Below are positions 3,639 to 6,600 of a stretch of 16,212 bases of DNA, one piece after another. This DNA is from a virus. Lineage: Duplodnaviria; Heunggongvirae; Uroviricota; Caudoviricetes. The position numbers were made by a program. The first letter of the stretch is position 1; every line of letters begins with the position of its first letter. The DNA is taken from IMG/VR virus record IMGVR_UViG_2529293223_000015, positions 1 through 16,212 of that record, one strand, 5' to 3'.

Positions 3639-6600
3639 TGACCACTTCAGTTGTCATGACAGGAAGATGGTTATGCGTAAGTGACGGGAGTTTTTCAATA
3701 GACGTGCGATTCATAGACATGTCCTTTCGAATATTTTGATTTACCCCTTTTGAGAGGGTGACCGGGCGCTCAAAACCGTCGAAAGTCGGCGGGCGTATTT
3801 CCATTGCTGGTATTGTATTAGCCGCACACCCGGTCATAAACCAAGAATTCTGGACACAAAAAAACCACATGGCTATCGGGTGTGGATACCGCTTTCGAGG
3901 TGTTTTGAGCACCGCGGGGAAATGTAAACTGCAAACCTGAAACTGTCAACACCGTCAGGTTCCAATCATCGGGTGGTGAGACGCACAGGGTTGGAACTAC
4001 CGGGAAACCGACCGGCGAGCTTTTCAGCTCCCCCATGCGCCCCACCATAATTCAGATGTGCGCGTGCATACGACAATAAAAAACACGCTCGCGGCGTGTG
4101 TCTGTCGCGGTCTCTATCCGGGGTTCCAATCCCGACGCCAGATTTTGCTGGCGCGTGAGGAATATAGCCCCGGACAATGTGTCTGGTCAAGCACCTACAT
4201 AATTCGTTCTACGTATCTGTCCATCTCCAGCCTGATATCAAGCATCATCAACATGCCATCAATAACCCCTTCCGCTTTCTGCAGGCGCTTGCCAATACAG
4301 GTATCCGAACACCCATGTTTCCGTGCCAGACTCATAAAAGTCATTCCACCTACGTAATAATCCACCAGCAAATCGTGCAAATCCTGATTTTTCTTGTTCA
4401 ACCGGGCCATACAGCCACAAATTATCATTGCATCATCATCAGAACACTGAGGGCGTGATTTCACTTTCGACGGAATTAACCCTTTAAAACCAGCAGCGAT
4501 CGACGCCCAGGATACATCTTCATGAGTGTTTGCAGCCCAAGCCCCCCACCGTTCCATAACCTGCTGAATATCACGCGCCATCGTTATCACCTGTGATTTC
4601 GTAAATCTTCACGCCCAGTCGCCCACCAGGAACGAGCTGACCGCGCACAATATTGATTTCATCAAACTGCTCGTCGTCTATGAGTAGTCCGGCATGCGTC
4701 AGCGCATCCAGTGGTGCTTTCAGGATATTGTCCAGGTCACGACGGCGCTTATCCGGTGGCTCTGCAATAATCTTTATCGCCAGCCTTCCGGACAGGTTTA
4801 ATTTCAGCCGCTGCTGGCGAACAATTAGCGTCACATCACGGCGATAACGCTCACCAACTTTTGATACAAAATATGTGCAGCCACGACGTCGCCAGTAAGT
4901 ATTCACCGTCGGCGGATAAGGTAAAATAAACTCATGGCGCATCAGCGCAGCACCTCCTGCACCATTTTTTCAAACTTTCCAACTTTGGTTTCCAGCTCTG
5001 CCACACAATCAACGAGCTCATCCACCGCTTTTTGTGCGCGATGTTTCGCCTGCATCAGTTCCCTGAGCGCTGGCACCATATCCCGACGAATGGCATCTTT
5101 TGTTACACCTGTTTTTTCCAGTTGTTCCGCCTGTCGCAACATTTCCTGCGCGTGTTTACGCAATTGTTCAGGGGTAAAAGTCATTGTCTGGTTGTTCAAA
5201 AGAAACGCTCCATCTTACTGCTGTCGGTACGTGTATTGCTGTATCTGCGCGGCTGGGGCTGCCGCATTGGGGTGGAAAGAACCTGTGCGCTTTCCTGGTC
5301 CACAGGCAGAAAATGTCCGTTATAAAAACGCCGGTAAATCGTCCCCAGAGAACCGTTACGTTGTTTCGTGATATTAATTTCTGCTATGCCTGTGGCCTGT
5401 GTATCCGGGTTGTACACTTCATCCTAAAGTGCGCAAAATCATTTGATACCGTTTTGAATTTTTTTTGATACCACCCAAAACGGCACAACGAAAAATTATT
5501 TGATACTAATCGGGAGTGCTTTTAGGGTATGGCTGAACCCTGAATAGCTTAGTATTTAGTCGCTTTCTTGCGCGCTTGTTCAGGAACCTGATGTAACGAT
5601 ATTGATTAAATTTGTGTACCACGGCCCGCTCCTTATTCGCTCGTAAATATTCGCCGCGCTTCCCTCCACGATTAATCGCATTCATCGTTATCTCGTGATA
5701 CCACTCACCGTCCAGTTCGTAGAATGTGCTTTCATGGCTGCCAATAAAATCAAAATTTGACGCCTGATACACAACACCTGCACGCCCGCAACGTTCGTCT
5801 GCAAAGGACTGAACCCACTCCACTGACGGATACAGTAACCTGATGGTTTTCAGCGCGTAGCTGATGGCCCGTGATTCAGAGTTGCGGGGCATGTCGTCGT
5901 GTAGCCACATGCGGTTCAGTTCCATATAGCCCCGGTTATCCGTTTCAAGCACAACGCGACGCCCTGAGTTGGGGTTAAGGGCATATCCCCACTGAAGAAC
6001 ACCAACCAGATCACGTCCACTGAATACGCCCAGATGCAACCAGGAGTTATTCACAAAACGGCGGGAATAATGCTTTGTCTGAATGATTGTGCGGGCCAGC
6101 CAGCAGGATATGGTTTCAACGCGCAGCTCCCTTGAACCATAGCCGACAATCCGGCCTTCATACTCAATAACGCAGGGTTTTGTCAGAATGCGTGATTTCT
6201 TCTCTTTTCCCACAATACAGCTCCGTGGGATGCTCCCGGGCACTCGATATGACAATGTAACGTTTACAGCGAGGACATTTGATTTCTATATGCTTAAAAC
6301 CTCCTTTAAACAGCAATTTATTGCAATTTTTACAACGAACAGAGTCCATAATTTCCCCCAGTGTAATAACAGGATATAGCTGCCCGGAGGGCTGGGGGTA
6401 TTTAATCACACTTGATGCAAACCGACGATCGATATGATGCTATCGATCGTCATAAACTATACAAACTGATTATTTAATCGCCTGGTCTGAACGCTCTCAC
6501 CTCGTCCAGTGTGGGCAACAGAGAAAGTTGTTCTTTCATCTCCCGCTGACAGCGATAAATCTCATCGTTGCGCTCAACAATGGCCTGTATCATCGCTGTG

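Follow-up and report, generated by a model that had tools for sequence, protein, structure and literature searches.

Two serial RNA modules and an ORF6N gene form a probable anti-repressor cassette between Q and PR' of a lambdoid prophage, with sRNA-Xcc1 as a proposed C4-like antisense gate

The question raised by the Caudoviricetes DNA of IMG/VR record IMGVR_UViG_2529293223_000015 (16,212 nucleotides (nt), hereafter the window) is what occupies the 475-nt non-coding interval between its antiterminator gene Q and an ORF6N-type gene split by IS911, and whether that gene is cargo of the late operon. A preliminary description made from the sequence had placed the ORF6N gene in the slot taken by Shiga toxin (stx) in Stx phages, i.e. 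under Q antitermination together with the lysis genes. The order of features is RusA (4942..4571), Q, the 475-nt interval, the ORF6N 5' part, IS911, the ORF6N 3' part, tRNAs, holin and lysozyme, and all features of the cassette, Q, the tRNAs and the lysis genes are on the minus strand and are described from high to low coordinates. The segment 4190..1899 is probably a portable anti-repressor cassette of the phage P1 immI and Gifsy-1 isrK-anrP kind, composed of two serial RNA switches and one gene. What makes it of interest is the regulatory array, chiefly the evidence for the small RNA (sRNA) family sRNA-Xcc1 as a C4-like antisense gate: this RNA appears from its sequence to be built and placed like the C4 immunity RNA of phage P1, and is proposed to be a cis-encoded antisense gate on anti-repressor genes.

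An Rfam search of the 475-nt interval returned four elements, isrK, c4-a1b1, C4 and sRNA-Xcc1, all above their gathering scores (GA). The first module begins with the cassette promoter PisrK (4190..4161; -35 TTGACC at 4190..4185, an 18-bp spacer, and -10 TATATT at 4166..4161), the hexamers of which align with the isrK promoter of Gifsy-1 and with the copy in phage Nil2; the Gifsy-1 promoter is active in lacZ fusions and drives anrP transcription (PMC4825925). The isrK-type leader sRNA follows at 4154..4078 (RF01394, 77.5 bits, GA 50), overlapped by c4-a1b1 at 4167..4115 (50.1 bits, GA 46.7). The leader carries box a1, UUGGAAC, in the loop of isrK hairpin 2 (4129..4123), box b1, GAGACCG (4114..4108), and a terminator within the Rfam match, i.e. 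a hairpin at 4099..4083 and then a U-run to 4077. By homology, the promoter-leader-terminator unit after Q is the isrK leader sRNA of a C4-type module. The preliminary description was right to see a real unit here directly after Q, as the isrK homology confirms, but not in calling it the late promoter and terminator, since the PR' homologue is situated at 1881..1827.

The C4 antisense RNA itself is located at 4052..3969 (71 bits, GA 45; fold z-score -5.0), and by analogy with P1 the mature RNA would extend from about 4046 to 3972. Box b', CGGUUUC, lies in the hairpin-2 loop (4010..4004) and box a', GUUCCAA, in the junction (3997..3991), with the downstream target a2, UUGGAAC, at 3965..3959. 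Box a co-varies three ways, as UUGGAAC/GUUCCAA/UUGGAAC in the window and SCU-125 and as UUGGCGU/ACGCCAA/UUGGCGU in Gifsy-1 and Nil2. An exact-match search of the window for the partner of b' failed, and the partner GAGACCG emerged once one G-U pair was permitted and relatives were compared. Box b of the C4 hairpin-2 loop likewise co-varies with its leader copy, and in relatives also with a copy at the ribosome site of the anti-repressor gene (UGGUUGAU with AUCAACCA in SCU-125; CGGUGAU with AUCACCG in Gifsy-1). In these relatives b2 abuts GAGGG-N-AUG, being AUCAACCA in SCU-125, AUCACCG in Gifsy-1 and GAAACC in Nil2. The corresponding b2, Shine-Dalgarno sequence and gene of module 1 are gone in the window, as judged against SCU-125, Gifsy-1 and Nil2, and are replaced by module 2 from about 3950. 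With its ribosome-site target and original gene lost, module 1 can supply only RNAs and read-through transcription.

Module 2 repeats this plan. Its promoter P2 (3949..3921, TTGACA-17-TACATT) has a counterpart in Nil2, TTGACA..GGGGATATATTCC, which resembles PisrK and thereby suggests that the two module types are paralogous. The leader (3914..3858) carries a1x, (G)CUCAAAA(C), i.e. GCUCAAAAC, in a hairpin loop (3910..3902), b1x, UCGAAAG (3898..3892), and a candidate terminator formed by a weak hairpin, CCACA/UGUGG (3885..3865), with U7 at 3864..3858; the hairpin shows a compensatory change in EC12/Nil2. The sRNA-Xcc1-family RNA occupies 3835..3752 (RF02221, 77.4 bits against a GA of 53, model positions 1-87). 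Its hairpin 1 bears the motif AAUACAA-ACCNG-AA-GG-AA, its hairpin-2 loop is b'x, CUUUCGA (3785..3779), the junction before the closing stem holds a'x, UUUUGAG (3775..3769), and the outer stem is followed by CCC. The targets come next: a2x, CUCAAAA, at 3754..3748, and b2x, UCGAAAG, at 3730..3724, overlapping the ORF6N Shine-Dalgarno sequence AAGGA (3726..3722). Boxes b'x, b1x and b2x change together, from CUUUCGA with UCGAAAG in the window to the Xcc1 loop CUACUGA with UCAGUAG in both target copies in EC12, and to the loop CUACUUGC with the targets GCAAGUAG and CAAGUAG in Nil2. In the Rfam search sRNA-Xcc1 alone matched 3835..3752, with no C4-clan match there at E ≤ 1.

The reference for both modules is the immI region of P1/P7 (P51 promoters, a1 b1, c4, a2 b2, icd, ant). 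P1 immI scores 68.8 bits for C4 and 51 bits for c4-a1b1, and its a1-b1 leader is a sub-threshold isrK match. Its annotated sites lie at -88 (a1), -74 (b1), +4 (a2) and +33 (b2), with b2 10 nt before the icd ATG, a' in the junction and b' in the hairpin-2 loop. In common with the window, P1 has a promoter, an a1 b1 leader and a downstream anti-repressor gene. The antisense RNA, which is processed in P1, has in each case a long terminal stem with two hairpins and a 3' CC tail, and a' and b' are placed alike; a2 comes just past the RNA, and b2 sits at the ribosome site some 10 nt ahead of the start codon. Module 1 matches the C4 and c4-a1b1 models and has the complementary and co-varying a' and b', but lacks b2 on a ribosome site, whereas module 2 has both boxes, with target copies on either side and the distal copy at the ribosome site, and is not matched by the C4 covariance model. 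The window further differs from P1/P7 in having no icd-like open reading frame (ORF) between b2x and the anti-repressor gene and no evident C1 operator, in an anti-repressor of ORF6N type instead of P1 Ant1/2, and in a lambdoid host element with the cassette between Q and PR'.

The boxes of sRNA-Xcc1 were then assessed across the family. IMG/VR was scanned for the conserved hairpin-1 motif, which gave 120 loci, and 91 distinct elements with sufficient flanks were parsed; 19 of 20 sampled motif loci were confirmed as RF02221 at the gathering score. For each element the longest exact complement of the loop or junction box was sought in its own flanks and in those of other loci, with 5000 permutations. 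The cognate sum for the loop box was 1249 against 849 ± 14, a value reached in none of the 5000 permutations, and for the junction box 1245 against 906 ± 18, the largest permutation being 977. All four boxes, each of at least 6 nt, were present in 61 of the 91 viral loci. Among these 61, a preceded b downstream in 56 and upstream in 58, and the median positions were -92 (a1), -79 (b1), +18 (a2) and +33 (b2), a geometry matching that of P1. Box b2 abutted a Shine-Dalgarno-like triplet in 55 of the 61, its end being a median of 9 nt from the ATG (interquartile range 8-10), and a run of at least five T stood between b1 and the element in 54. The terminal stem was followed by CCC, CCA or ACC in 72/91 loci, a feature consistent with a module of the P1 C4 type, in which RNase P forms the 5' end and the RNA represses both translation and transcription of ant. 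The loop regions were hypervariable, with 76 distinct sequences in the 91 loci.

The result was replicated on 63 GTDB genomic loci, which include Pseudomonas, Bartonella, Neisseria, Rodentibacter, Brenneria, Azospirillum, Mesorhizobium and Xanthomonas, and all four comparisons were more than 12 standard deviations above permutation. Many genomic matches outside Proteobacteria had no terminal stem and looked like chance, the motif having 16 specified bases; they were dropped by the stem filter. Nine further genomic elements were removed by hand.

The same data bear on a different reading, in which sRNA-Xcc1 is a trans-acting sRNA on host or plant mRNAs, as in the Xanthomonas/Xylella literature, and its place before an ORF6N gene is incidental. 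That literature treats it as a virulence-linked or vesicle-borne RNA: it is under HrpG/HrpX control in Xanthomonas, has been found in Xylella vesicles, and was mapped in X. campestris as a stable 88-nt RNA (PMC2996969). The window RNA is a full-length, 77.4-bit match to this integron-cassette sRNA of Xanthomonas campestris (RF02221), of the size mapped. Xanthomonadaceae copies, which lack a2/b2, retain a1/b1 alone and stand before symE or small ORFs (PMC12444791), also speak for a role in trans. Against this, in the viral as well as the genomic set the two variable boxes change in step with their neighbouring cis copies, and the window and most of these loci have co-varying a and b boxes and then an anti-repressor gene. 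When the first gene after the element was scanned at 64 loci, 52 hits to anti-repressor-type N-terminal domain families were obtained (Bro-N 14, KilA-N 9, ORF6N 9, pRha 8, P22_AR_N 7 and AntA 5). The hypervariability of the boxes moreover makes a poor fit to a conserved host target, and the purely trans-acting role is extremely improbable for the element in the window.

Nine of the copies in Xanthomonas, Rhodanobacter and Pseudoxanthomonas (L134, L149, L166, L170, L172, L189, L194, L216 and L239) have kept co-varying a1/b1 boxes upstream but show no a2/b2 in the 700 nt downstream, where there is instead a conserved hairpin with a small ORF; they have the look of "orphan" antisense modules. One viral contig (L043) carries three CRISPR-DR4 repeats at 2202..2349 (Rfam, at or above the gathering score), about 260 nt past the stop of the anti-repressor gene, Bro-N-like by eye, that follows sRNA-Xcc1. 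These repeats could be a phage-borne mini-array.

The DNA itself shows how the cassette is built, which boxes can pair, that they co-vary and that the target lies on the ribosome site. For its operation, the following course is proposed. Transcription from PisrK would yield the 77-nt terminated leader IsrK with boxes a1 and b1, and read-through transcripts would carry C4, whose a' and b' match a1/b1 and the downstream a2. By analogy with P1 C4, a stable Xcc1-type RNA, its ends presumably made by processing, would pair by its hairpin-2 loop with b2x and by its junction with a2x. The pairing would hide the ribosome-binding site, so that the anti-repressor stays untranslated in the lysogen. The upstream a1x/b1x copy would compete for the antisense RNA and allow translation, either in cis or, as is known of IsrK, in trans in the form of a short terminated RNA. 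The AnrP homologue may then inactivate a prophage repressor and promote induction; for AnrP itself the evidence of repressor inactivation is indirect, through prophage induction and a rise in antQ-operon mRNA. The cassette follows Q, with isrK's own terminator the only one present. Early rightward transcripts made on induction probably extend into it as well and would create a positive feedback.

Several points weigh against this course of events. Repression by pairing is carried over from P1, and the Gifsy-1 study reports IsrK activation and "orf45" coupling, not C4-mediated repression (PMC4825925), so control in the lambdoid C4-type versions may differ in sign and route. At the 6-nt exact-match criterion 30 of the 91 viral loci lack at least one box, and 11 of the 63 genomic loci, mostly of Xanthomonadaceae, have no a2/b2 within 700 nt downstream; the antisense-gate model as it stands does not cover the Xanthomonadaceae loci. 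The loci are also phylogenetically related, and the permutation z-scores therefore overstate their independence. The terminator of module 2 is weak (fold z-score +0.7), and the promoter calls for PisrK and P2 are by themselves not above chance. Consensus scans found six promoter-like sites where 5.7 were expected from shuffled sequence, and nine terminator-like sites where 6.5 were expected; such scans were not used as evidence alone, and support was taken from homology, i.e. to the Gifsy-1 isrK promoter and from the Rfam isrK match.

The Gifsy-1 work also supplies an explanation of its own, which draws on direct genetics and biochemistry at the homologous locus. There, IsrK terminates with some read-through and acts in trans on its own read-through mRNA (PMC4825925). 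The read-through mRNA would have an inert fold that the leader opens in trans, an orf45-like ORF would couple ribosomes to the anti-repressor start, and the C4 and Xcc1 folds would be by-products. The window retains both "orf45" AUGs of Gifsy-1, at 4048 and 4036, in the 5' strand of the C4 terminal stem, and the middle hairpin of IsrK is box a1, pairing with the C4 junction. The orf45-like frame (4048..3818, minus strand, 76 codons) extends through P2 and the leader of module 2, terminates within the Xcc1 element some 100 nt short of the ORF6N start, and is probably not a gene; coupling as described can therefore not operate here. Two things would also be left unexplained, namely the target boxes set on Shine-Dalgarno sequences at P1 spacing in about 90 to 150 loci, and the stable RNAs, i.e. 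STnc1160/C4, of which STnc1160 is a stable RNA from the C4 region of Gifsy-1 (PMC4825925), and the 88-nt Xcc1 RNA. As a full account of the window this explanation is unlikely. It is partly compatible with antisense repression, in that the leader would be an anti-antisense RNA.

The antisense-gate cassette has its closest described relative in the same Gifsy-1 locus, isrK-orf45(STnc1160)-anrP-isrJ (Hershko-Shalev et al. 2016, PMC4825925), in which Rfam places isrK and C4 between antQ and anrP. Both loci have Q, isrK, a C4-type RNA, an ORF6N anti-repressor, tRNA and lysis genes; isrK and C4 match their models equally well in the two, the hexamers of the promoter are conserved, and AnrP is 49% identical. 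In both, isrK follows Q and an AnrP homologue follows in turn, whereas the overlap of orf45 with the anti-repressor start is absent from the window, where the frame falls short at 3818. Unlike Gifsy-1, the window has a complete second module (P2, leader, sRNA-Xcc1, a2x/b2x) interposed, has lost the b2/ribosome-site target of module 1, bears the specificity box UUGGAAC instead of UUGGCGU, and has an 82/933W-type PR' element downstream instead of isrJ; its gene is also broken by IS911.

Whether the ORF6N gene belongs to the late operon depends on the position of the late promoter. An element of the form TTTACGATCGTAAAAA-N-TAT(C/A)(C/A)T-G(T/A)TAAGAGTGGTTAC (TTTACGATCGTAAAAA..TATCCTGTTAAGAGTGGTTAC) is found directly after, or overlapping, the end of Q in H-19B, Sakai Sp5 and PhiR40_1, and this PR'-type element follows Q in 339 phage records. 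Mapping of Sp5 by dRNA-seq and Term-seq put the 3' end of the terminator tR' 258 nt from PR' (PMC7547250). If transcription starts 7 nt past TATCAT, the U-run of the downstream terminator in Sp5 is exactly 258 nt away, the coordinate offset between genome versions being inferred. That the element after Q in H-19B is something other than PR' was considered and dropped on this 258-nt fit. In the window the PR'-type promoter and initial transcribed region are at 1881..1827 (-35 TTTACG at 1881..1876, -10 TATCCT at 1859..1854, then GTTAAGAGTGGTTACTACGCCAC), after the ORF6N stop (1899), and the same position is taken in E. coli EC12, SCU-125 and R1. The cassette is therefore inserted between Q and PR', which would place its gene outside the Q-antiterminated transcript.

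The preliminary description, in which the unit after Q would be PR'/tR' and the ORF6N gene an accessory gene (moron) highly expressed by Q with the lysis genes, like stx, had grounds in that the PisrK unit starts 5 nt past the Q stop codon and resembles a 6S/StxS-type leader, and in that Gifsy-1 has a likewise ordered Q-isrK-anrP. The gene does lie between Q and the lysis genes, but not downstream of PR' and tR', whereas the order in Sakai Sp5 is Q, PR', tR', tRNAs, stx. The PR' homologue with its initial transcribed region, fitting the mapped Sp5 start, is downstream of the gene. An identical promoter-isrK-C4 unit is located after ninE in Nil2, about 4 kb upstream of a phage-21-type Q, and copies of the unit are present in 265 phage records, for the most part within the nin region of Stx phages. 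Being found far from Q, and with another Q type, the promoter belongs to the cassette and not to Q. The 82Q protein needs a binding element and a pause element in the initial transcribed region (PMC4914094), and the region transcribed from PisrK has no similarity to the PR' initial transcribed element. The placement in the late operon and in the Shiga toxin position is thus contradicted, and the late-cargo view as a whole is very unlikely. The position upstream of PR' also contradicts a statement made in passing that IsrK is expressed from an antitermination-regulated promoter (PMC7547250).

The insertion has left its mark on Q (4581..4195; ATG 4581, 128 amino acids), which is of the short 82/H-19B/933W type (PF06530, 2.2e-52; PHROG 79) and 77% identical in DNA to Q of H-19B and Stx phages. 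By sequence comparison it is C-terminally shorter than the 144-amino-acid Q of H-19B/Sp5 and ends at the cassette junction. The window protein terminates in ...DRYVERIM, and the 144-residue form runs on, its final codons overlapping the PR' -35 hexamer. The junction would thus cut about 17 residues off Q, and PR' has been displaced from Q by 2.3 kb, or by 3.6 kb with IS911.

Compared with the late region of the Stx phages (Sakai Sp5, H-19B: Q, PR', StxS/tR', tRNAs, stx), the window shares the Q family, PR' with its initial-transcribed element, and a tRNA cluster ahead of the lysis genes. It differs in the ORF6N cassette, placed upstream of PR' and not downstream of tR', in a stx-equivalent interval without a convincing gene, and in the loss of the hairpin/U7 after PR'. 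This hairpin/U7, CTTAAACCCGCCGATGAGCGGGTTTTTTTATACCTGAA, follows PR' directly in the 99.7%-identical contig L042, and close variants do so in EC12, SCU-125, H-19B and Sp5; in the window it has been removed by a 38-bp deletion between 1827 and 1826. Without it, PR' transcripts would reach the tRNAs and the lysis genes, themselves disrupted by IS600, in the absence of Q. In Gifsy-1 (L005, 33480..33406) and one further contig (L009, 736..662), isrJ (Rfam, about 100 bits) stands directly after the anti-repressor gene and so takes the place that the PR' leader has in the prophages of E. coli and Shigella; for the Gifsy-type Q, IsrJ may itself be the leader RNA running from PR' to tR'.

The gene of the cassette could be reconstructed with assurance. 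The ORF6N gene consists of a 5' fragment (3720..3650, with ATG codons at 3720 and 3714) and a 3' part (2400..1899; Pfam ORF6N, PHROG 2379, AnrP homology), separated by IS911 on the plus strand (2401..3649) with a 3-bp target duplication, GTT, at 2398..2400 and 3650..3652. The insertion sequence is 99.8% identical to copies named IS911 by PGAP, and the IMG/VR contig L042 has an uninterrupted allele with the IS911 site empty and both flanks 99.7-100% identical; the empty site and the intact protein make the reconstruction sound and bear out the inactivation by IS911 that had been described. The gene is consequently dead in the window genome, whose RNA genes remain intact. Translation probably starts at ATG 3714, 7 nt past the Shine-Dalgarno sequence AAGGA and matching the PGAP start in E. 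coli EC12, which gives 187 amino acids instead of the 189 first proposed.

A profile search of the restored protein confirmed the ORF6N/anti-repressor-like identity given in the preliminary description, the gene order of which also holds. ORF6N (PF10543) matched residues 15-99 at 9e-21, PHROG 2379 "anti-repressor" matched end to end (residues 3-189) at 3e-85, and identity with STM2616, the AnrP of Gifsy-1, was 49% over 184 amino acids (E 6e-58). The earlier label "function unknown" is out of date, since in Salmonella expression of AnrP increases antQ-operon transcription and leads to Gifsy-1 induction (PMC4825925). As judged from these matches, the restored protein is an ordinary AnrP-type anti-repressor of a known kind. 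For Q and the ORF6N protein, NCBIfam and a PDB sequence search gave no match.

Downstream of PR' lies a tRNA cluster (1747..1437: CAT, Arg-TCT, Thr-TGT, Gly-TCC), whose CAT tRNA is the annotated tRNA-Ile at the equivalent position in relatives. The interval between tRNAs and holin (1436..757, about 680 nt) is the true stx-equivalent slot; it contained no convincing ORF, only frames of 71 and 86 amino acids, and no Rfam match at E ≤ 1. In two relatives (L003 and L004) the sRNA STnc100 is located in the equivalent region. The S21-type holin (756..541; dual start M1/M4; PF04971, 1.5e-35) is followed by the first 59 codons of a lysozyme gene (541..~365; PF00959), cut by IS600 (1..~364). At the other end, the minus strand of 5506..16212 encodes late functions of a Mu-like prophage, namely a DNA circularisation protein, gp44/P, gp46, baseplate J, gp48, a tail fibre with its assembly protein, DUF4376 and Mom. 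This part adjoins a truncated lambdoid early region at a junction near 5420..5500, and an ORF at 5196..5417 resembles the C-terminal end of a replicative helicase, judged by reading its translation. The lambdoid prophage has thus been struck by a Mu-like phage, IS911, IS600 and a deletion.

E. coli relatives show the order hokD, rem, DUF968, RusA, Q, [isrK-C4], ORF6N, PR', a 65-amino-acid ORF, a DNA methyltransferase or helix-turn-helix gene, (tRNAs) and lysis genes. The single-module short form makes up most of the records listed, and the stacked two-module form was found in EC12, L042 and the Salmonella-type contig L009, which ends with isrJ. A tandem array of isrK, C4, sRNA-Xcc1, ORF6N, isrK and C4 on another contig (L062, 2422..3753) shows that module stacking recurs beyond the window. 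Among 5426 complete E. coli genomes, isrK-type sequence was present in 808 and module 2 in 152, the latter unannotated in every record among the matches listed.

For the family, these findings offer a testable function for sRNA-Xcc1, an RNA annotated in many genomes. A literature search returned no paper linking sRNA-Xcc1 with C4 or with anti-repressor control; the 2011 sRNA-Xcc1 paper was outside this search, and an earlier description is possible. The map of a very common prophage region would also be corrected, in that the anti-repressor cassette of this Q family is situated between Q and PR'; it is consequently not to be read as late-operon cargo, nor the isrK promoter as the antiterminated late promoter. 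More speculatively, and with the balance rather against it, sRNA-Xcc1 might be not a virulence family but a second widespread C4-type "immunity" RNA class, whose boxes set the specificity of anti-repressor gating across Proteobacteria. Copies without downstream targets, of which the decapitated isrK-C4 module of the window is one kind and the Xanthomonadaceae integron cassettes with a1/b1 and Xcc1 are another, would in that case serve in trans, either as decoys or as immunity at the RNA level, against related phages that enter the cell or already reside in it. The hypervariable paired boxes would amount to an RNA-encoded specificity code, which could govern cross-induction and immunity among co-resident prophages, Stx phages included.

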